This document shows, in pieces, positions 3,625-58,892 of a stretch of 64,000 bases of DNA. The DNA lies in assembly GCA_904501945.1 (NCBI GenBank), contig CAJGCU010000001.1:1639-65638 (forward strand), given 5' to 3'. Each line of letters starts with the position of its first letter. Position 1 is the first letter of the stretch. The notes below the pieces were generated by a model. It saw only the letters and a list, made by a program, of their open reading frames with translations, had not been told where the DNA came from and ran no database searches. This stretch comes from an uncultured Bacteroidaceae bacterium (GTDB taxonomy: Bacteria; Bacteroidota; Bacteroidia; Bacteroidales; Bacteroidaceae). A program made the translations under genes and the position numbers.

Positions 3625-3783
3625 CGAAATTTTGAATAAATGTGAGAAAAAGGTTTGATTATATTTCTCAAATGAGGAAAAAAGATTTTTTTTATGTCTG
3701 TTAAATTCGCATTCCCGTTCAGGACAAGATTTGGGAATCGTGTACTTGAAAAATGGTGTTTCCCCAATCTGCATATTGGTATA

Positions 3784-3875
3784 GGGCGCATCCAATTTAC
3801 GTTATAGGGCACATCGTAATTACATAGCAGGGTGTATCGTAATAACGCTCTAGATTGTATCGATTATCTGAAAAA
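3784..3875 (+). repeat. tandem 23-bp repeat array (CGTAATTACG family), 4 units, last one weak
   Basis: Units are gggcgcatccaatttacgttata / gggcacatcgtaattacatagca / gggtgtatcgtaataacgctcta / gattgtatcgattatctgaaaaa. Phase is exactly 23 bp. Lies between the tamL-like stop and the aspS promoter. Confidence 0.8.
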
Positions 3876-3907
3876 ACATTGACCTTTGATTGGTGTGCTG
3901 TGTGCCC

Positions 3908-6366: not shown

Positions 6367-7263
<897 letters not shown>

Positions 7264-7339
7264 TTAGAATTTATTTAGTTTGTTAGAGTTTTGTAGTTTT
7301 TTATCGTATGTTTTCTCAACGACTAATTTTCTCAGCAAC

Positions 7340-13405: not shown

Positions 13406-13474
13406 CCCTACATCGTAGTTACGTTATACCTTGCAACGTAATTACGATACAATATATAACGTAATAGAGATGTA
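13406..13474 (+). repeat. tandem 23-bp repeat array (CGTAATTACG family), 3 units
   Basis: Units are ccctacatcgtagttacgttata / ccttgcaacgtaattacgataca / atatataacgtaatagagatgta. Cores start at 13412, 13435 and 13458. Confidence 0.75.
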
Positions 13475-13480
13475 TAATAA

Positions 13481-13528
13481 TGTAAAAAAATGATGTGCCC
13501 CACATCGAGTTATCGGTATGGGGCACAT
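13481..13528 (-). terminator. rho-independent terminator of the GH127-like gene
   Basis: 10-bp stem atgtgcccca (13493-13502) / tggggcacat (13519-13528) with a 16-nt loop. On the minus strand it is followed by cattttttta. Confidence 0.7.
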
Positions 13529-13559
13529 TAATTTCATAATGTTTTCTTTGTCACGTATC

Positions 13560-29112: not shown

Positions 29113-29148
29113 ATATGCCCCATAACGCAAAAGCGATGTGGGGCATAT
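29113..29148 (-). terminator. terminator hairpin downstream of lysA
   Basis: 10-bp stem atatgcccca (29113-29122) / tggggcatat (29139-29148) with a 16-nt loop. Same hairpin family as 13493-13528. Confidence 0.55.
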
Positions 29149-45433: not shown

Positions 45434-46843
45434 TTATTTTTTAGAAAGCCTGATTTCTTCTATCAGTTCCTTGATGTCAAGTTTGATTTTTTCATCCATT
45501 TCCATAATACCGCTAATTTGTTTAATAGCGTGTATTACGGTAGAATGATTACGATTACCAATATACAAACCTATTTGTACATGAGATTTATCTGTTAATT
45601 GATCTGCAAGATACATGGCAACTTGTCGTGCATGAGCTATCTGCTGAGTACGTATGCGTGATTCTATCTGACTTACTTTCAGATTATAATGATTGCAAAC
45701 GCATTGCTTGATGTGGTCAATTGTGATAGGTGTTTCATCTCTTTCTACAAATCTTGGAAGGACTTTCTTAACAAGATTCATATCAATGCTACAATTGTAA
45801 ACAACTGAATATGCAATGAGCGAATTAATAATGCCTTCGAGATCGCGGATGCTTTCATCTAAATTTTCAGAGATGAATTTCAATACGTTATATGGAATGT
45901 TTAATCCTTCTTTTTCAACTTTCGCAGAGAGAATGTCTAGTCGTAGATTCCGTGTCGGCTTCTCTATTTCAGCTTGCATACCCCATTTGAAACGAGTGAG
46001 AAGACGGTCTTCGAGTCCTTGTATGGCGATAGGTGGACGGTCTGCAGAAAGGATAATTTGCTTTCCATTGATATGCAGATGGTTGAATATATGGAAAAAA
46101 GTGTTTTGAGTCTGTATTTTTCCTGAAAGTTCCTGTACGTCGTCAAGAATCAGCGTATCAATAGTTTGGTAGAATCGGATAAAATCATTCACCTTGTTTT
46201 GGCGTACTGCGTCTGTATATTGAACAGTAAAAAGATGCGCAGACAGGTAAAGAACACGCATTTGTGGATGGTGTTCTTTTATACGCGTTCCAATGGCACT
46301 AATGAGATGGGTCTTTCCGCATCCGGAAGGTCCATATACAAAGAATGGGTTAAATGTCTTTGCTGGATTATTGGCAATAGATTCACCGACAGAACGTGCC
46401 AGTCGATTGCTCTCGCCTTCGATATAATTGTCGAACTGGTAATGAGGGTAGAGCTGAGAATCTAAATCTTGTACCATTGGAGCTGTCACATCGTCTGGTG
46501 ATTTGCGGGCATCGAGACGTGGCTCTCCGTTGGTAACTCTTGGAGTAATATTGGTTTTTTCTACAACTTCACAACCTGGCGTTGTTTTTACCACTGCCAC
46601 ATTATAATATAATGCTTTGATGCTATCGCCAAATACTCTTTTGAATGTAGAAGCCATCAATGGCAGGAAGTTGTCCTCCAATAACTTCTTGACAAATTCG
46701 CTAGGTACATTAAGTACCAGCTTGCCATTTTCGAAACTGTGAAGTTCGACAAAGGCAAACGAAGCCGCGAATTGTTCTGGTGTGATATTGTCGCGAATAA
46801 TATCGAGACATCTATCCCACAGTTGTTTTGGAGTTTGTTCCAT
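45434..46843 (-). CDS. dnaA: chromosomal replication initiator protein DnaA
   Basis: 469 aa. Walker A GPSGCGKTHL, an AAA+ core and C-terminal DNA-binding domain ...GNRNHSTVIHAIKQI. Confidence 0.97.
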   Translation of the reverse strand: MEQTPKQLWDRCLDIIRDNITPEQFAASFAFVELHSFENGKLVLNVPSEFVKKLLEDNFLPLMASTFKRVFGDSIKALYYNVAVVKTTPGCEVVEKTNITPRVTNGEPRLDARKSPDDVTAPMVQDLDSQLYPHYQFDNYIEGESNRLARSVGESIANNPAKTFNPFFVYGPSGCGKTHLISAIGTRIKEHHPQMRVLYLSAHLFTVQYTDAVRQNKVNDFIRFYQTIDTLILDDVQELSGKIQTQNTFFHIFNHLHINGKQIILSADRPPIAIQGLEDRLLTRFKWGMQAEIEKPTRNLRLDILSAKVEKEGLNIPYNVLKFISENLDESIRDLEGIINSLIAYSVVYNCSIDMNLVKKVLPRFVERDETPITIDHIKQCVCNHYNLKVSQIESRIRTQQIAHARQVAMYLADQLTDKSHVQIGLYIGNRNHSTVIHAIKQISGIMEMDEKIKLDIKELIEEIRLSKK

Positions 46844-47139: not shown

Positions 47140-47193
47140 ACAAAGATAAAACAAAAAAGATACTGTTTGAACAAAATTCAAATAGTATCTTTT
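47140..47193 (-). terminator. rho-independent terminator of the MlaD-like gene
   Basis: 17-bp stem aaaagatactgtttgaa (47155-47171) / ttcaaatagtatctttt (47177-47193) with one mismatch on the minus strand. It is followed on the minus strand by tttgttttatc. Confidence 0.65.
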
Positions 47194-47218
47194 TTCATAT
47201 TTTCTTTTTTTGTTTTTT

Positions 47219-48118
47219 TTATTTTTCTTTTCTGCCGAAAAGTGAGAAATGTACATAGCGTTTAGGGTGTAATCGGAGGTCTTCAAGCAGGCGTGAAGAG
47301 TTCATCAAGGTAGAGTCGATGTGCAAGGCGATAGAATTGTCATTGACTAACATGCCGAGCGATGTTTCTTTGCTCTTCATTGCTGTATTTAGTTTGAAAG
47401 TTAGGTCGTTCACATTATTGAGAGTTGCGTCAGCCTTTTGTGCCATGCCAACTATGTCAATTTGATTGATTCTATTGGTTGTTGTCTCCAGGTTTGTGCA
47501 AATATTGTTTGTTTTAGAAATGAGTTGCGGAACATCTTTGCTTAGAAGTCCATTTAATTGCGAAGTAGTAGTTTTAAGTTCCTCTGATATGGTAGCCATA
47601 TTGAGCATGGACGTTGAAAGAGAGGGGTCGTTAGCCAGTGTGTTCAATGCAGAAAGGATAGAGTCCATTTTCGGAAGCATTTTTTCAACTTGAGGAATCA
47701 TGTTTCCGGCCGCAGTCATAAGGTCGGTCATGGGTGTTCCATTGATGGTGTCACCTGGCGAGAGGATGACAGTTGGGTCTGTTCCTAATTTCAAGTTCAT
47801 CATGGCACTTCCAAGCATTTCCTTGGTCATGTAAACAGTAGTGCCTTGGGGAATCTGGAAATCAGGATTGACACAGATTTCGACAGTCAAGTTTTGTTTG
47901 ATTGGATTGAAAGTGATTTCTTTCACAAAACCGACTTTTAGACCATTGGCACGTACGTCTGATGCTGTGGGCATGCCTTGTACATCGGTCATTTCGACAT
48001 AATAAGAAACGTCATTACTGAAAAGTTTGAGTCCTTTCAGGAAGATGATTCCTACATATACAATCAGGATAGCAGCGATGGCTACTAATGCGATTTTTAT
48101 TTCCTTGCTGATTTTCAT
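47219..48118 (-). CDS. MlaD/MCE-family protein
   Basis: 299 aa. N-terminal TM anchor IALVAIAAILIVYVGIIFL, an MCE beta-barrel domain and a helical C-terminus. Confidence 0.7.
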   Translation of the reverse strand: MKISKEIKIALVAIAAILIVYVGIIFLKGLKLFSNDVSYYVEMTDVQGMPTASDVRANGLKVGFVKEITFNPIKQNLTVEICVNPDFQIPQGTTVYMTKEMLGSAMMNLKLGTDPTVILSPGDTINGTPMTDLMTAAGNMIPQVEKMLPKMDSILSALNTLANDPSLSTSMLNMATISEELKTTTSQLNGLLSKDVPQLISKTNNICTNLETTTNRINQIDIVGMAQKADATLNNVNDLTFKLNTAMKSKETSLGMLVNDNSIALHIDSTLMNSSRLLEDLRLHPKRYVHFSLFGRKEK

Positions 48119-49356: not shown

Positions 49357-51876
49357 TTATTCATTTATCAAAACTTTTCCATCAGACGTAATACCTTCTG
49401 CACTGATGTACATTTCTTGACATGTTGAGTTGTTGTAGAACTCAACCTTTGCTTTTCCTTCGGCATCTGTACGGACATTAGGATTCCAGTAGATCGTTCT
49501 TCTGAAGTCTGCCATAGGAGGAATGATGCTGTAATCCTCCATTTTGAATGTTGAAGGAGCATTGAATCCTTGGAAGTATGTTCTGCGCAATCCCTTTTGA
49601 CTTTCTGTTGTCACTTTTGTATGGAGATAGAGATAAATGCTAACACTTCCATTTGTATTTTCTGGGGCTCCAGGAACTATATAGATGGATTTGATATCAT
49701 CTAACCATAGTTCCGCCACTGGAGGAACATGCTTTCGTTCTCCATTATCAACAATCCAAATAATGTCACGTCCAGCATATTTAACATATTCTCTAACTTT
49801 AAGCGACCTGCGGGCAGGATAGTATTCAAATAAAGAGTTTCTTTCCTCTAAATATGTAAAAATATAAGGAACAGGAAGACCTTTATCTTGAATGTCATTA
49901 CAATCTTTGTCGGCATCGTAATACAACGTAGCGTACTGGCGTCCGAAATTCTCGTTCTTATATGCCCAATCGTCATTCGTGAAGTATCTGCGTTTTGCTT
50001 TAACGGTTACATTCTGAAGCATGTGAGTCTTCTTTGTAATTGGAATGAATACTGCTTCTTCCTCTAAATTAGTAAATTTTTGGGTTTTGACAAAGAAATT
50101 TGGTTTTAATGGTTTCTGTATTTCTGACTCTAAAGGTGTAATGAAACGTGGAGTAGGTGAAAACTGGCGGTCAATTCCCACATAATAGGTTTTGCGTTTG
50201 TTGCCTTTGGGGGTACCTTTTTTTGTATAAATTTGCATATTCCACTTGCCATCCACAAAAGGCATTTCGAAAGCGTAATTACCAAAGGAATCAGTTTGAG
50301 TCTTTCCTATGAGGCTTTGCCCTTCTTTGTTGTAAAGCATCACTTCCATGTTTACAAAGCTAACTGGATTTTTCTTTCGATATGCCTTCAACTGTCCAAA
50401 CACATAAAACTTGTCCTCTATGGGTTGCGATTTGCGGAAAATATACTTTTCAGACATCAATCTCCAGTCATATCGTCTCCAGCCCTGTGTCATCATGAGC
50501 AAATCGGCAGATTGGCGATGTGTCTCATCGTCTGCTTCGAAGTAGTAGTCAATATGATGGATATAGCCTTTTACTTCTGAACTAAGCAACATCCATGTCT
50601 TCATGTTGCCCTGTTTGCCGTTCGTCATGTTTTCTGCATCGATGGCTGAGAACGAGAGAAAGGCATTGGGCTCTGTCTGAAGCTCTAGCTCAACCTTTCC
50701 ACAAGGCTTGAGACTCTTTGTGGCAGATGTTATGCGTATGCTGTCGCTGTCGTTTGGCTTGGGACAGATGAAAAAGAGGCGTTCTGCCTGAATTTCTCCT
50801 TTTGTGTCAAACAGCGTGAACTGATGAACTCCTTCCTGCATGGCCTTCCTGTCTAAGAGGATTTTCATATTTGGAACGGCTTTCAGCGTATCTGCCAGCA
50901 GAATATTTCCGTTGTGCATTACTACATATCCTAACAAGGCGCCACAGAGGCTGTCTGTGGTTTGAATGGATGCACTCATCTCTTCGCTGATTACATCAAA
51001 GTGTAAGGCATGACCTTCCTTTCTAGCTGCAGGAAGTTGGAAAAACTGTGTTTTGTCCTTCAAGTTTTTCATTTGGAAAGATAAGGCGCCACTGTCGGGA
51101 ATGATATCGAACATGCCTCTGCCAAGGCTGTCGGTATTTACGGTTGAGAGTACATCTCCTTTTTCGTTCATGACGAACCCTTCTGCTTGGTAGGGGATTC
51201 CGTTGTCATCGACTGCCAGCATGGCAACTCTACACTTTTTGCCAACAATCAAATGTCCTCCCTCAGGATAAAACTGTATGCTAATGCTTTTTGCAAGTTT
51301 GCTGCTGTAAACACCCTCTCCGATGGCGTTCAGATAAAGAGAATCTGTACGGTCACGATTGTTAGGGTCGCGTTGTTTGTAGAGACGGTTCTGAATAGTC
51401 AAATCCTTATAGTTTCCTTCTTCCTTAGGAGTCTTGAAGATAGGAAAAACGCGAGAGAATACAGCATTTACTCCCCAGTTGGTCATGTAGCGAGTGTATG
51501 CACGCACTTCGTAGAAACCGCTGCCCAGCAAGGTGTCGAGCATCAAGTCTCCATGCGCCTGCCCATTTTCATCAATGGGATATTTGCGTGTCTTTATCAC
51601 ATCTCCGCTAGGATTAAGCAATTCTACATACAGCACCTTGCTCAAGTTGGTAGGGGAGCCATTATCTGTTTTGGTCACATAAGCTTTGAACCACATTGTC
51701 TCATTTTCAAAGTAACCCATATTGTCAAAGTGAAGATACACTTTTTCTTGTGGAATAACCTTGTTGAAATTCATGGCTTTTTGAATGTATGACATGATTT
51801 TTGTCGTGTCTGTTCCTTGGGCATGAAGTGATGTCGTCAAGACACACATGGTGAGGATATGTAAAAAACGTTTCAT
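49357..51876 (-). CDS. large secreted hypothetical protein with MG2 / carboxypeptidase-regulatory-like beta-sandwich repeats
   Basis: 839 aa from MKRFLHILTMCVLTTSLHAQG (signal peptide). EKVYLHFDNMGYFENETMWFKAYV and LYVELLNPSGDVI resemble alpha-2-macroglobulin MG2-type domains. The function is unknown. Confidence 0.4.
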   Translation of the reverse strand: MKRFLHILTMCVLTTSLHAQGTDTTKIMSYIQKAMNFNKVIPQEKVYLHFDNMGYFENETMWFKAYVTKTDNGSPTNLSKVLYVELLNPSGDVIKTRKYPIDENGQAHGDLMLDTLLGSGFYEVRAYTRYMTNWGVNAVFSRVFPIFKTPKEEGNYKDLTIQNRLYKQRDPNNRDRTDSLYLNAIGEGVYSSKLAKSISIQFYPEGGHLIVGKKCRVAMLAVDDNGIPYQAEGFVMNEKGDVLSTVNTDSLGRGMFDIIPDSGALSFQMKNLKDKTQFFQLPAARKEGHALHFDVISEEMSASIQTTDSLCGALLGYVVMHNGNILLADTLKAVPNMKILLDRKAMQEGVHQFTLFDTKGEIQAERLFFICPKPNDSDSIRITSATKSLKPCGKVELELQTEPNAFLSFSAIDAENMTNGKQGNMKTWMLLSSEVKGYIHHIDYYFEADDETHRQSADLLMMTQGWRRYDWRLMSEKYIFRKSQPIEDKFYVFGQLKAYRKKNPVSFVNMEVMLYNKEGQSLIGKTQTDSFGNYAFEMPFVDGKWNMQIYTKKGTPKGNKRKTYYVGIDRQFSPTPRFITPLESEIQKPLKPNFFVKTQKFTNLEEEAVFIPITKKTHMLQNVTVKAKRRYFTNDDWAYKNENFGRQYATLYYDADKDCNDIQDKGLPVPYIFTYLEERNSLFEYYPARRSLKVREYVKYAGRDIIWIVDNGERKHVPPVAELWLDDIKSIYIVPGAPENTNGSVSIYLYLHTKVTTESQKGLRRTYFQGFNAPSTFKMEDYSIIPPMADFRRTIYWNPNVRTDAEGKAKVEFYNNSTCQEMYISAEGITSDGKVLINE

Positions 51877-51902: not shown

Positions 51903-51910
51903 CAAATATA
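51903..51910 (-). promoter_or_regulatory. -7 promoter box TATATTTG
   Basis: Plus strand reads caaatata, 27 nt upstream of the ATG at 51876 and inside the longer ORF. Confidence 0.45.
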
Positions 51911-51961: not shown

Positions 51962-52053
51962 CCTTGTACCGTAATTACGCTATAGGGTGTAACGTAATTA
52001 CGATGCAGGGTGTAACGTAATTACGATGCAGGGTGTAACGTAATAGTGGTATA
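51962..52053 (+). repeat. tandem 23-bp repeat array (CGTAATTACG family), 4 units, two identical
   Basis: Units are ccttgtaccgtaattacgctata / gggtgtaacgtaattacgatgca / gggtgtaacgtaattacgatgca / gggtgtaacgtaatagtggtata. Confidence 0.9.
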
Positions 52054-57866: not shown

Positions 57867-58460
57867 TTACTTTGCGAAATACTCGTGAATGGCTGTGTCG
57901 TAGTGGCTTGATGTTGCAAATGCACGTTCAGCAAACTGCTTGCGCTGCGCTTTTGTGGTTTCGGCACCTTGAGCCTTCACGATGTCGAGCAGTGGCTTGT
58001 ATTCTGCCTTGCTTGGCACGATGACAACGTCGTTGAAGTTCTTGGCTGCAGCACGAATGAGCGAGATGCCGCCAATGTCAATCTTTTCAATGATGGCTGG
58101 CTCGTCATTTGTGTTGGCAACAGTTTCTTCGAATGGATAGAGGTCTACGATTACGAGGTCTATTTCTGGTATTTCATATTTTGCCATTTCCTGCTGGTCG
58201 CTTTCCAGCTCGCGGCGTCCGAGAATGCCTCCAAACACTTTGGGGTGAAGCGTCTTTACGCGACCGCCGAGGATTGAAGGGTATGTTGTGAGGTCTTCTA
58301 CTTTCTGGCATGGGTAGCCGAGGCTTTCGATAAATGATTGTGTGCCACCTGTTGACAAGAATTTAACCCCGTTTTTGTTCAGTTCTGCGAGAAGTTCGTC
58401 AAGTCCGTCTTTGTGGAATACTGATACAAGAGCTGTCTTGATTTTTTTTGTGTCAGCCAT
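57867..58460 (-). CDS. purH: stand-alone IMP cyclohydrolase (MGS-like N-terminal domain of PurH); AICAR formyltransferase domain absent
   Basis: 197 aa. MADTKKIKTALVSVFHKDGL...STGGT...GGRVKTLHPKV...DLVIVDLYPF...IDIGGISLIRAAAKN... It ends at ...YDTAIHEYFAK, where full-length PurH continues into the linker. The stop lies 35 nt before mreB. Confidence 0.8.
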   Translation of the reverse strand: MADTKKIKTALVSVFHKDGLDELLAELNKNGVKFLSTGGTQSFIESLGYPCQKVEDLTTYPSILGGRVKTLHPKVFGGILGRRELESDQQEMAKYEIPEIDLVIVDLYPFEETVANTNDEPAIIEKIDIGGISLIRAAAKNFNDVVIVPSKAEYKPLLDIVKAQGAETTKAQRKQFAERAFATSSHYDTAIHEYFAK

Positions 58461-58528
58461 TTTTCTTCTGAATTTTATAATTGTAAACTTATTGATAATA
58501 TTGTTCGTTCTTTGATAGAATAGAGTTA

Positions 58529-58536
58529 CAAAGTTA
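58529..58536 (-). promoter_or_regulatory. -7 promoter box TAACTTTG (purH-mre operon)
   Basis: Plus strand reads caaagtta, 69 nt upstream of the ATG at 58460 and inside the longer ORF (to 58541). Confidence 0.4.
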
Positions 58537-58680
58537 GGCATTTCTCTCCATACAAAACAGAAGATTTTATTTTTTTTGTTAGGGCCATTGTAATTTATAT
58601 AATTTCATCTGTGTTTTGTCTCCGTTTTGCAATGTTTGCTGTTGCTTTTTTGAAAGATGCATATGCTTGAAAGGGATCTC

Positions 58681-58749
58681 CCCTTCATCGCAATTACGCT
58701 GATGTATGTATCGTAATTACGATGAAGGGTGCATCGTAATGGCGTTTGC
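58681..58749 (+). repeat. tandem 23-bp repeat array (CGTAATTACG family), 3 units
   Basis: Units are cccttcatcgcaattacgctgat / gtatgtatcgtaattacgatgaa / gggtgcatcgtaatggcgtttgc. Cores start at 58687, 58710 and 58733. Confidence 0.8.
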
Positions 58750-58862
58750 GGGTGCGCAGAAGGAAAGCGGAAGAATTTGTCCAGAGAAATCTTGCTCACA
58801 TGTCAGACTTTCGATGGCAGAACGTCTTGCTGTGGCCATTGCCGTACTTATGATGTTTTAAA

Positions 58863-58892
58863 CACCGTCTGCGTAATATTACGTACACGGTG
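58863..58892. repeat. 30-bp palindrome with central CGTAATATTACG
   Basis: caccgtctgcgtaatattacgtacacggtg pairs at 13 of 15 positions. Lies 60 nt downstream of the lipoprotein gene stop. Confidence 0.6.

Follow-up and report, generated by a model that had tools for sequence, protein, structure and literature searches.

Arrays of 23-bp Units in the Window

The window, i.e., the whole 64,000-nt stretch of DNA that was analysed, contains four intergenic arrays of 23-bp units, designated A, B, C and D. The genes that flank them code for RodA, an Omp85/POTRA protein, GH127 and a Gly-zipper protein, as the initial annotation had stated. It had also placed every array 3′ of a minus-strand gene, and all four lie 20-200 nt past the stop codon of such a gene. 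The type locus, array D (51962-52053, plus strand), consists of four units, and reading them directly from the sequence gave the same units as before. Its cores at positions 51970, 51993 and 52016 are all CGTAATTACG, and the core at 52039 is CGTAATAGTG. The spacers are G-rich (ATGCAGGGTGTAA), and an inverted half-unit, CCTTGTAC, is present at the left end. The promoter-type box described earlier beside this array is the Bacteroidetes-type −7 box TATATTTG at 51903-51910 on the minus strand. It serves the downstream 839-aa gene (ATG at 51876), is not part of the repeat, and is kept in strains as TATATTTG or TATCTTTG.

Array A (3785-3876, plus strand) is built of four degenerate units with the cores CCAATTTACG (3792), CGTAATTACA (3815), CGTAATAACG (3838) and CGATTATCTG (3861), and its spacers are also G-rich. 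The cores of array B (13406-13474, minus strand) are CGTAGTTACG (13414), CGTAATTACG (13437) and CGTAATAGAG (13460), and one more lies in phase at 13506. Array C (58681-58749, plus strand) contains CGCAATTACG (58689), CGTAATTACG (58712) and CGTAATGGCG (58735); here, CCCTTCATCGCAATTACG pairs with CGTAATTACGATGAAGGG, which gives an 18-bp stem with a 13-nt loop. Arrays B and D share a "tail" of ~16 nt after the last core (CGTAATAGWGRTRTA). A terminal unit that keeps only CGTAAT, claimed for all four arrays, is found in B (CGTAATAGAG), C (CGTAATGGCG) and D (CGTAATAGTG) and is less clear in A.

The periodicity was evaluated in several ways. TRF reported a repeat of period 23 at 51965-52044 (3.5 copies, 92% matches, score 132) and further period-23 arrays at 3780-3823 and 58686-58740. 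The core CGTAATTACG occurs five times in the window versus 0.01 expected, a count that was reached in none of 100 shuffles. With up to three mismatches allowed, ATCGTAATTACGAT gave 15 matches versus 3.6 expected, and 11 of the 15 lie inside the four arrays. Pairs of cores are spaced by 23 and never by 15-22 or 24-35, a test that is ascertained for the fetched loci and independent for window arrays A, B and C. An HMM built solely from the arrays of other genomes (a 46-nt profile) found exactly the four arrays A-D in the window and nothing else. The observation of four arrays of 23-bp units was confirmed. The best HMM matches of D (E = 1e-6), A (E = 6.5e-5) and C (E = 0.0017) are on the plus strand, and that of B (E = 0.019) is on the minus strand. 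The earlier statement that all arrays lie on the same strand therefore stands for A, C and D only; the polarity of B is opposite, because its informative spacer is C-rich on the plus strand.

The unit is an interrupted 16-bp dyad (YA-n-CGTAATTACG-n-TR) with a 7-bp centre, which is G-rich, or C-rich when flipped. As neighbouring units abut, their dyad centres are exactly 23 bp apart.

Distribution and Gene Contexts

A pattern scan of species-representative genomes revealed 43 arrays. About 15 rumen or gut Prevotellaceae/Bacteroidaceae MAGs account for 42 of these, and strict matches number one to six per genome. The idea of a "four-locus family" was not borne out, since these 43 further loci are dispersed in many genomes. 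All 47 arrays lie outside ORFs of at least 100 aa as placed by a crude ORF caller, which agrees with the claim that they are not coding. With gene contexts taken from the same crude caller, the 37 arrays with two called neighbours were found between divergent (11), tandem (19) and convergent (7) genes. At the tandem sites, folding is better for the mRNA sense strand in seven cases and for the antisense strand in six, and the strands are equal in six. A link of orientation to transcription was rejected on this basis. Orientation relative to local GC skew is random (11/8), so that a link to skew or replication was rejected as well. The fixed orientation and 3′-UTR role proposed in the initial annotation do not hold as a general statement: gene contexts are mixed, there is no sense-strand bias, and few arrays adjoin a T-run. 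Random orientation was the annotation's own ground for refutation, and the orientation-dependent reading is weakened accordingly.

The neighbouring genes are heterogeneous (aspS, ribH/TPR, mreB-rodA, pgm, PFOR), and the distance from array to promoter varies from 50 to 250 bp. The window, which also contains dnaA, has four arrays in 64 kb, compared with no second array in ~377 kb of other loci, roughly 340 kb of which are the surroundings of the seed arrays. Seven loci have in common a conserved block of ~500 bp around the array. This block was considered as a leader, tail or TIR and rejected, as it is largely orthologous context, with the same genes (PFOR) adjoining in several species. Other palindromes, such as CCTCGTGAGC and CTCCGCGGGC, take the place of the core, in phase, in some arrays.

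Variation between Strains and Sister Lineages

Contigs with an identical RodA allowed locus D to be compared between strains. Most of them have three units, and four are present in the window and in two other contigs (L048/L049), with a different unit duplicated in the window than in these two. The strain differences at this locus are whole 23-bp units. Two further contigs of the species have a nearly identical array A that differs by a single substitution. At locus B, the outer cores in most strains are mirror images, CTCCATTACG and CGTAATAGAG. In the sister lineage L052 (RodA identity 97%), arrays are retained, with turnover, at the sites of loci C and D, and the locus C array has one unit fewer at the same site. 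The array of locus B is retained in L098 and L099, in which the TPR protein is 96% and 87% identical, respectively; the MAG GCA_017391225.1 encodes the same TPR protein. The perfect core is kept in both, and the surroundings cannot be aligned; at orthologous loci, the core is thus conserved where the flanks are not. Relatives with 78-83% protein identity, in which the synteny differs, do not have the array. A comparison of filled and empty sites among relatives gave no clean insertion junction.

Spacers occur in both orientations around the self-complementary core, with palindromic arms of 20-44 nt, and many arrays are long imperfect palindromes.

Folding and Terminator-Like Hairpins

The claim that adjacent or mirrored units are able to pair was supported by folding, with z < −3 in 35 of 46 arrays. 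Complementary flanks (at least 8 of 13 pairs) are present in 15 of 141 units. Purely direct arrays, such as the type locus D, form only weak core-core pairings. One strongly folding example is located 3′ of rodA in L052 (11496-11568), where a hairpin of −57 kcal/mol (z = −11) has A5 and U7 at its sides. An adjoining T-run was found at 10 of 46 arrays, and array D is without one. Hairpins followed by a U-tract were present at a few copies, which resemble intrinsic terminators; most arrays do not.

Two unit-like hairpins were found in the window, compared with 0.04 in shuffles. The first, ATGTGCCCCA-TACCGATAACTCGATG-TGGGGCACAT at 13493-13529 on the minus strand, is followed by U7 on that strand and probably acts as intrinsic terminator for the GH127 gene. 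Array B continues into this hairpin in 23-bp phase, which places the core-like apex CGAGTTATCG at 13506 (13460 + 46). In L098, however, terminator and array are ~130 bp apart, so that the phase could be a coincidence. The second, ATGCCCCATAA-CGCAAAAGCG-ATGTGGGGCAT at 29115-29146, is a solitary hairpin in the spacer between two minus-strand ORFs; it gave no match with the array HMM and is assigned to the family only tentatively. The Gly-zipper gene has a terminator-like hairpin at 58860-58890 (minus strand) with the apex CGTAATATTACG, a core-like 12-bp palindrome at 58872-58883. The apex is different in the L052 orthologue, and membership of this hairpin in the family is uncertain.

The two strands differ in pairing in two groups of related loci, with 81% versus 66% of cells paired owing to G.U, and the wobble counts per array are over-dispersed (chi-square ~36 on 19 df). 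Covariation indicative of an RNA helix, calculated for 10 related loci, did not exceed that in shuffled controls.

Search for Known Families, Mobile Origin and Partner Proteins

Rfam gave no matches at gathering thresholds in the window, L014 and L022, and relaxed searches returned only sub-threshold noise of eukaryotic miRNA hairpins. A literature search for the core sequence, Prevotella REPs and 23-bp repeats yielded nothing specific. The initial annotation had not recognised the arrays as a described repeat family, and no description was found in Rfam or the literature. A CRISPR, which that annotation had also excluded, was rejected, since the 13-nt inter-core segments form a conserved family instead of unique spacers, and no cas gene was found among the flanking genes examined.

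BLAST searches of plasmids and phages gave no match. A phage origin was rejected, as the three viral pattern matches belong to an unrelated high-GC phage operator set. In this unrelated IMG/VR phage, three ACGTAATTACGT dyads, the first two of them 23 bp apart, lie between divergent HTH genes. A metagenome scan with the type II spacer pattern TTACGNCGTTG-N12-TTACGNCGTTG, chosen so as to sample independently of the core, returned unrelated sequences only. The RAYT/TnpA_REP motif (an HuH...Y regex) was not found in ~0.6 Mb of array-locus sequence, and the arrays gave no sign of a transposase, of terminal inverted repeats or of target-site duplications. GAGACC-type ends were not seen, and the window arrays have no common flanks beyond ~16 nt.

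Discussion

The four loci are real copies of a family of short intergenic repeats in rumen Prevotella-like bacteria that is apparently undescribed. With a confidence a little above even, we regard the arrays as a dispersed palindromic minisatellite, similar to REP and BrickBuilt and less so to a gene-specific operator or an RNA gene, in which slippage and inversion at the dyad drive evolution. They would be lineage-restricted, non-coding elements of the same kind as REP/BIME and the BrickBuilt of Porphyromonas, with no orientation-dependent, gene-specific function. The strain comparison shows gain and loss of whole 23-bp units by replication slippage or unequal exchange, which the repeated, self-complementary core makes possible. 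Strand switching or inversion at the core would flip the spacers, a process whose products are seen in the sequences, and such flips would give rise to C-arm/core/G-arm hairpins and whole-array palindromes. Where a T-run adjoins, the hairpin could have been co-opted as an intrinsic terminator. Because the core is invariant while spacers and flanks diverge, it most likely serves a trans-acting, sequence-specific dimeric protein as its recognition site. Judged from this conservation, a protein recognition site is probable, and a merely structural role of the core is unlikely. The candidate protein may be a transposase-like enzyme, by which the copies were seeded, or a DNA-binding protein of the host, by which they are retained. 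We infer dispersal by transposition indirectly, as no clean filled/empty pair was found between close relatives.

The closest known analogue, which the initial annotation had missed, is the MITE/minisatellite BrickBuilt, described in Porphyromonas gingivalis (Klein et al. 2015, Mob DNA 6:18; PMC4596501). It belongs to the same bacterial order and has a tandem repeat of exactly 23 nt without unique spacers. It is always intergenic and dispersed in ~19 copies (PMC4596501), and its repeat number varies among strains, as in the window family. Long stem-loops are predicted in both, with no Rfam match and terminators often nearby. In our own reading of the published unit, the tandem BrickBuilt repeat consists of a 12-bp palindrome, TCTCATATGAGA, and a spacer, comparable to CGTAATTACG and 13 nt. 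The unit sequences, however, are unrelated, and only the architecture is common. BrickBuilt has up to ~23 units, whereas the window family has 2-7, and spacers that flip orientation within arrays belong to the latter. BrickBuilt is flanked by a leader and tail of ~300 nt with IS5-like TIRs (GAGACCTTTGCA), which were not found in the window family. Reports of BrickBuilt are limited to P. gingivalis and P. gulae, and its promoter activity was demonstrated (PMC4596501).

REP, BIME and REPIN elements are similar in a broad sense: like the window family, they appear as short imperfect palindromes in intergenic DNA only, which are dispersed, lineage-specific, vertically persistent, rapid in sequence turnover, sometimes clustered, and may serve as terminators or RNA hairpins. 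The initial annotation was supported in calling the arrays REP-like in a broad sense. In contrast to REPs, the type I consensus RTRAMGGGYRYAW and the core have no unpaired 5′ foot (GTAG/CGTC/GCTR); type II spacers do contain CGTC, in an internal and paired position. REPs are mostly inverted dimers (head-head or tail-tail), and head-to-tail copies are rare (PMC3733652). The window family is strictly head-to-tail in 23-bp phase, whereas the inverted dimers of REPs are 20-100 bp apart. It is also not depleted from divergent intergenic regions, and no RAYT gene was seen near any array in the ~0.6 Mb of locus sequence. The RAYTs include a subclass specific to Bacteroidetes, 2.6, that has "atypical" REPs (PMC6006769); its published REPs are 25-28-nt hairpins with a GCTR foot, and as they are unlike the window-family units, they were rejected as a match. 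Several points count against the minisatellite reading. The copy number looks low, tens per genome versus hundreds for classical REPs; the strict head-to-tail order is rare for REPs; and the clustering of arrays in the window is unexplained. Moreover, the orthologous conservation over species-level divergence could equally mean a selected host function.

As an alternative, which we consider possible but rather unlikely, the arrays would be phased binding sites, and a dimeric DNA-binding protein particular to the lineage would use them in a host function. The predicted protein would act, for example, as a regulator, as a nucleoid-associated protein or in the organisation of domains, with a dimer bound per 16-bp dyad, and the 23-bp spacing (~2.2 turns) would permit cooperative binding, as in lambda-type operators and iterons. 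The geometry is similar to that of lambda-type OR/OL and of plasmid iterons (22-23 bp), i.e., dyads of ~16 bp about two helical turns apart in 2-7 copies, and the unrelated phage with ACGTAATTACGT dyads shows that it works as an operator. The invariant 10-bp core, kept at orthologous loci despite diverged flanks, is consistent with such binding, and so is the complementarity of positions ±7 and ±8 from the dyad centre in 61 of 74 and 54 of 74 spacers, respectively. Orientation independence is what a dyad DNA site predicts, and the arrays are clustered in a window that also has dnaA. Operators and iterons differ, however, from a family that occurs at many unrelated loci with no common theme among the neighbouring genes, including the 7 of 37 arrays between convergent genes, at variable promoter distances and with a unit number that varies among strains. 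Against this reading are also the in-phase swaps of the core for CCTCGTGAGC and CTCCGCGGGC in some arrays. No candidate protein emerged, a regulator or replication gene was not found next to the arrays, and the window arrays have no AT-rich unwinding element beside them.

A little less probable still is a wider proposal, in which the arrays belong to a Bacteroidales class of 23-bp-period arrays with palindromic cores, made or kept by a conserved dimeric protein machinery and, in this lineage, clustered as anchoring sites in a chromosomal domain with dnaA. As part of this proposal, the invariant feature would be the 23-bp ruler and not the sequence, with CGTAATTACG, with CCTCGTGAGC, CTCCGCGGGC and GTACCCCTCGGGTAC in the same genomes, and with TCTCATATGAGA in BrickBuilt as members.

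It is improbable that the arrays act in RNA, as 3′-UTR hairpins that terminate transcription or protect mRNAs. The position of all four window arrays past a stop codon would fit this role, as would the better pairing of one strand and the over-dispersed wobble counts. Some copies, exemplified by 13493-13529 in the window and by the array downstream of rodA in L052 with its U7 tail, are GC-rich hairpins with a U-tract after a stop codon, similar to Rho-independent terminators and to the paired DNA-uptake sequences of Neisseria, which double as terminators. Most arrays, however, have no U-tract, and their apical sequence is conserved, a property that a terminator can do without and that is not predicted for a purely structural hairpin. 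The mRNA sense strand is not favoured as the better-folding one (7/6/6), divergent genes flank 11 of 37 arrays, a T-run is present at only 10 of 46 arrays and not at the type locus, covariation was no higher than in shuffled controls, and the G.U excess is possibly a by-product of G+T-rich spacers.

True homology to BrickBuilt, i.e., an internal minisatellite of a MITE with IS-type TIRs on its leader and tail that is mobilised by an IS transposase, is very unlikely: the 23-nt period, intergenic siting, dispersion and strain variation are common to both, and the ~500-bp block at seven loci and the tail of arrays B and D could be read in this way, but the units are unrelated (AGACCATAGTATCCTCTCATATG in BrickBuilt versus GGGTGTAACGTAATTACGATGCA in the window family), the window arrays have no common leader or tail beyond ~16 nt, no GAGACC-type TIR and no TSD, the block next to PFOR in several species points largely to orthology and not to mobility, and plasmids and phages gave no match.

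The preferred reading, a dispersed palindromic minisatellite, concerns rumen Prevotella, a dominant but poorly characterised group for which it appears that no dispersed palindromic repeat has been described so far. Repeats of this kind (REP, BIME, BrickBuilt) have effects on termination and mRNA stability, on promoter activity and on genome rearrangement; they are also used as typing markers. The window family is compact and readily recognised, and its unit-number polymorphism makes it a possible VNTR marker. The exact 23-nt period that it shares with BrickBuilt, from a different family of Bacteroidales, is unexplained; if the 23-bp ruler is indeed the invariant feature, the arrays would not be junk repeats but would anchor, in phase, a protein that organises the chromosome or derives from a transposase. 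If a protein partner exists, the invariant 10-bp dyad would be a direct handle for finding it. If there is no partner, annotators would still need to know these arrays, which can be mistaken for operators, sRNAs or degenerate CRISPRs.

Arrays in the Window

The arrays form a genuine dispersed family of palindrome-core minisatellites with a 23-bp unit in rumen Prevotella-like bacteria, and no prior description of such a family was found in the literature or databases. The type locus, array D (51962-52053), reads exactly as the initial annotation gave it. Tandem Repeats Finder (TRF) called it with a period of 23 over 51965-52044 (3.5 copies, 92% matches, score 132) and made further period-23 calls in the window at 3780-3823 and 58686-58740. 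Five copies of the core CGTAATTACG were counted in the window against 0.01 expected (at least five in 0 of 100 dinucleotide shuffles); all five are inside arrays, with three of the four arrays represented. The extended dyad ATCGTAATTACGAT, with up to three mismatches, gave 15 matches against 3.6 expected, 11 of which fall within the four arrays. Near-core pairs were spaced exclusively by 23 bp, with none at 15-22 or 24-35 bp. A profile HMM trained on arrays from other genomes only, with the window arrays left out, found exactly four places in the 64 kb and none besides: array D (E = 1e-6), array A (~3785-3876, E = 6.5e-5), array C (58681-58749, E = 0.0017) and array B (13406-13474, minus strand, E = 0.019).

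The flanking genes named earlier (RodA, an Omp85/POTRA protein, a GH127 enzyme and a Gly-zipper protein) were borne out, as was the placement of the arrays, which start 20-200 nt past the stop codon of a minus-strand gene and have the next TAnnTTTG box 50-250 nt downstream of them. The claim that all arrays share one strand is limited to A, C and D, because B is matched by the profile in minus-strand orientation and, read on the plus strand, has a C-rich informative spacer. Array B runs on in 23-bp phase into a hairpin at 13493-13529, with the core-like CGAGTTATCG at 13506 (13460 + 46). U7 follows directly on the minus strand, and the hairpin looks like a terminator of the GH127 gene. Elsewhere in the window, an AT-rich tandem repeat of period 19 (TTTATTTAGTTTGTTAGAA, 2.8 copies, 7250-7303) occupies the spacer between a 291-aa ORF and a 1513-aa TamB/DUF748-like gene. 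Directly upstream of mreB, a short minus-strand ORF (57867-58541) has an MGS-like domain and only the first ~58 positions of the AICARFT/IMPCHase profile; because the sister lineage also has it, as a conserved gene of 197 aa, it is not a newly truncated purH.

Unit Anatomy and Strain Variation

The analysis of 83 inter-core segments (74 distinct) showed that the 13-nt spacer is a conserved family of its own. The type I consensus is RTRAMGGGYRYAW, in which the central GGG never varies, and type II is GCAACGnCGTTGC-like and palindromic in itself. Spacer positions 2/12 and 3/11 are complementary in 61 and 54 of the 74, and positions 1/13 in only 22; the true dyad is therefore ~16 bp long (YA-n-CGTAATTACG-n-TR), with a 7-bp centre after it. 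Both spacer orientations were seen around the self-complementary core. Many arrays have C-rich spacers on the left and G-rich ones on the right, which makes one long imperfect palindrome with arms of 20-44 nt; others, including type locus D, consist mainly of direct repeats, one end of the array being an inverted half-unit (CCTTGTAC-core-CTATAGGG). Of 141 single units, only 15 can form a hairpin with their own flanks. At three loci the core is swapped for another palindromic 10-mer (CCTCGTGAGC, CTCCGCGGGC, CCTCGCGAGC), with phase and spacers unchanged.

Eight metagenomic contigs carry a RodA identical to that of the window and a variable array downstream: six have three units, and two have four. 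The window reaches four by a duplicated GGGTGTAACGTAATTACGATGCA unit, and those two contigs by duplication of a different one. As judged from these sequences, the differences are 23-bp slippage of the minisatellite type. In L052, a locus of the sister lineage (RodA 97% identical), C and D are both occupied and the arrays diverge far more than their flanks; C is one unit shorter, and the array at D has turned into a terminator-like hairpin (-57 kcal/mol, z = -11) between A5 and U7. In lineages at 96% and 87% TPR-protein identity, an array with a perfect CGTAATTACG persists at locus B, amid spacers and surrounding intergenic DNA that are unalignable. Loci B and D lack an array in relatives at 78-83% identity, whose synteny differs. 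Within the species, the outer cores of locus B are mirror-image (CTCCATTACG, CGTAATAGAG) in most strains, a pattern expected from inversion or conversion around the central dyad.

Distribution and Neighbouring Repeats

A scan of 185,579 species-representative genomes, with two perfect cores 23 bp apart as the query, yielded 43 loci. Of these, 42 belong to ~15 MAGs from rumen or gut whose labels are Prevotellaceae, Bacteroidaceae or Bacteroidales (1-6 loci per genome); the match in an Actinomycetota MAG was rejected as an unrelated 23-bp repeat. None of the 47 arrays (the 43 and the window's four) falls within an ORF of 100 aa or longer. By a crude ORF caller, the 37 with two called neighbours comprise 11 divergent, 19 co-directional and 7 convergent contexts. 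Run over ~377 kb from other loci, of which ~340 kb surrounds seed arrays, the HMM gave no second array. The density in the window (four per 64 kb) is far above that of the other loci searched and points to lineage-specific expansion or regional clustering; one MAG contig of 124 kb carries three arrays. A 469-aa ORF of the window (45434-46843, minus strand) is syntenic with a gene called DnaA in L052 (Bac_DnaA, DnaA_N), and just upstream lies a T-rich tract (47188-47231, 44 nt, containing a 32-nt run of ~74% T), so the window may be origin-proximal. No GC-skew switch is visible, the skew being positive throughout the window.

In 507 kb analysed with TRF, period 23 was far commoner than any other period of at least 10, and ~9 of the period-23 arrays were without the CGTAATTACG core. 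Arrays with different palindromic cores (GTACCCCTCGGGTAC, CCTCGTGAGC/CTCGCGAG, a CAATTG-containing core, GTGCCCCACA, TTCCGCAGGAA) were seen in the same or related genomes, at loci L015 (604-672), L023 (400-468), L019 (7135-7226), L039 (6984-7075), L037 (5844-5912), L004 (7147-7215), L024 (5728-5819), L041 (2528-2619) and L054 (5523-5614); several adjoin, or share phase with, CGTAATTACG arrays. Tandems with TTACG/CGTAA-type dyads at L006 of an Actinomycetota MAG (3639-3740, TTCGTTTCACACGTAATTACGTC x4.4, 23 bp) and at L075 (183-250, TTACGCCGTTGGCGTAA every 23 bp) are a convergent likeness in unrelated taxa. Around the array at seven loci, a ~500-bp intergenic block is conserved (L014 1730-2215; also L010, L021, L038, L007, L005 and L026), in the order array, G-rich tract (GTGGGTGTGTCAGTTGTGGGGGGG), (GTTGCAGT)3, ~100 bp of near-pure A+T and inverted (ACTGCAAC)3. 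In several species the block is found close to PFOR, and one MAG contig has two copies of it; its layout resembles an origin or invertible segment, and no plasmid match was found. A ~75-bp perfect-hairpin insertion (GCACAAGAAAATGCACTAAAAAAATGCAATT...TGCATTTTTTTAGTGCGTTTTCTTGCG) at L014 2205-2285, and at the same position in L021 (two species), is missing from otherwise identical sequence in L038 and L010, and has the appearance of a small, palindromic mobile element distinct from the arrays.

Possible Functions and Relation to Known Repeats

The constraint pattern points toward a putative protein-binding DNA site, because the core stays invariant while all its surroundings drift, and the units are dyad-symmetric, orientation-independent and fixed in phase. 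An unrelated phage shows that such geometry is usable: in a high-GC phage from IMG/VR (L061 7700-7790; also L060 and L062), two small, divergently oriented HTH-like genes (89 and 127 aa) are separated by a 90-bp gap with three ACGTAATTACGT dyads, of which the first two stand 23 bp apart. This set is a textbook repressor/Cro-type operator switch with the same palindrome, unrelated to the Prevotella family. Against a gene-specific operator stand the heterogeneous neighbours (aspS, TPR/ribH, mreB-rodA, pgm, PFOR), the occupied convergent contexts, the strain differences in unit number and the in-phase replacement of the core by other palindromes. That the arrays are phased binding sites serving a host function we consider unlikely.

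A general RNA element of 3' UTRs, as the initial annotation proposed with its stabiliser or terminator, is more doubtful still. Most arrays do fold strongly on one or both strands (z < -3 on at least one strand in 35 of 46). Among 10 sequences from two groups of related loci, G.U pairs give one strand the better pairing (81% vs 66% of cells). The number of wobbles per array is over-dispersed, and G+T-rich spacers probably account for the G.U asymmetry. However, covariation in these 10 sequences did not exceed that of shuffled controls, and in co-directional contexts the better-folding strand was mRNA sense in 7, antisense in 6 and equal in 6. Spacer polarity agreed with local GC skew in 11 cases and disagreed in 8, a T-run adjoins only 10 of 46 arrays, and many arrays sit between divergent genes. 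We conclude that a terminator or stabiliser role would be real for a few copies (window 13493-13529; L052) and not a general function.

The closest described element is BrickBuilt of Porphyromonas gingivalis (unit AGACCATAGTATCCTCTCATATG), a 23-nt tandem repeat without spacers, always intergenic, with 19 copies per genome, strain-variable repeat number, predicted long stem-loops and no Rfam match (PMC4596501). Dispersed copies and these other properties are common to both families, and in tandem the BrickBuilt unit gives a 12-bp palindrome (TCTCATATGAGA) plus an 11-nt spacer, the same architecture. A BrickBuilt-type MITE in the strict sense is nevertheless very improbable, since the units have no sequence similarity and no leader or tail with IS5-like inverted repeats was found at the arrays. 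REP/REPIN elements are likewise palindromic, intergenic, lineage-specific and persistent, but their unpaired GTAG or CGTC foot, mostly inverted dimers, hundreds of copies and avoidance of divergent regions (PMC3733652) are all unlike the 23-bp family. The Bacteroidetes-specific TnpA_REP subclass 2.6 has "atypical" REPs, listed as 25-28-nt hairpins with a GCTR foot (PMC6006769); they do not resemble the 23-bp units. The HuH/Y1 motif was absent from all loci examined.

On balance, we lean slightly towards a REP/BrickBuilt-like repeat. Slippage changes an array by whole units, inversion centred on the dyad would alter it further, an occasional copy would be co-opted as a terminator, and the invariant core would probably be recognised by a trans-acting protein. 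Worth attention are the local clustering of arrays and the exact 23-nt period that the family has in common with BrickBuilt and with the other palindrome-core arrays in the same genomes.
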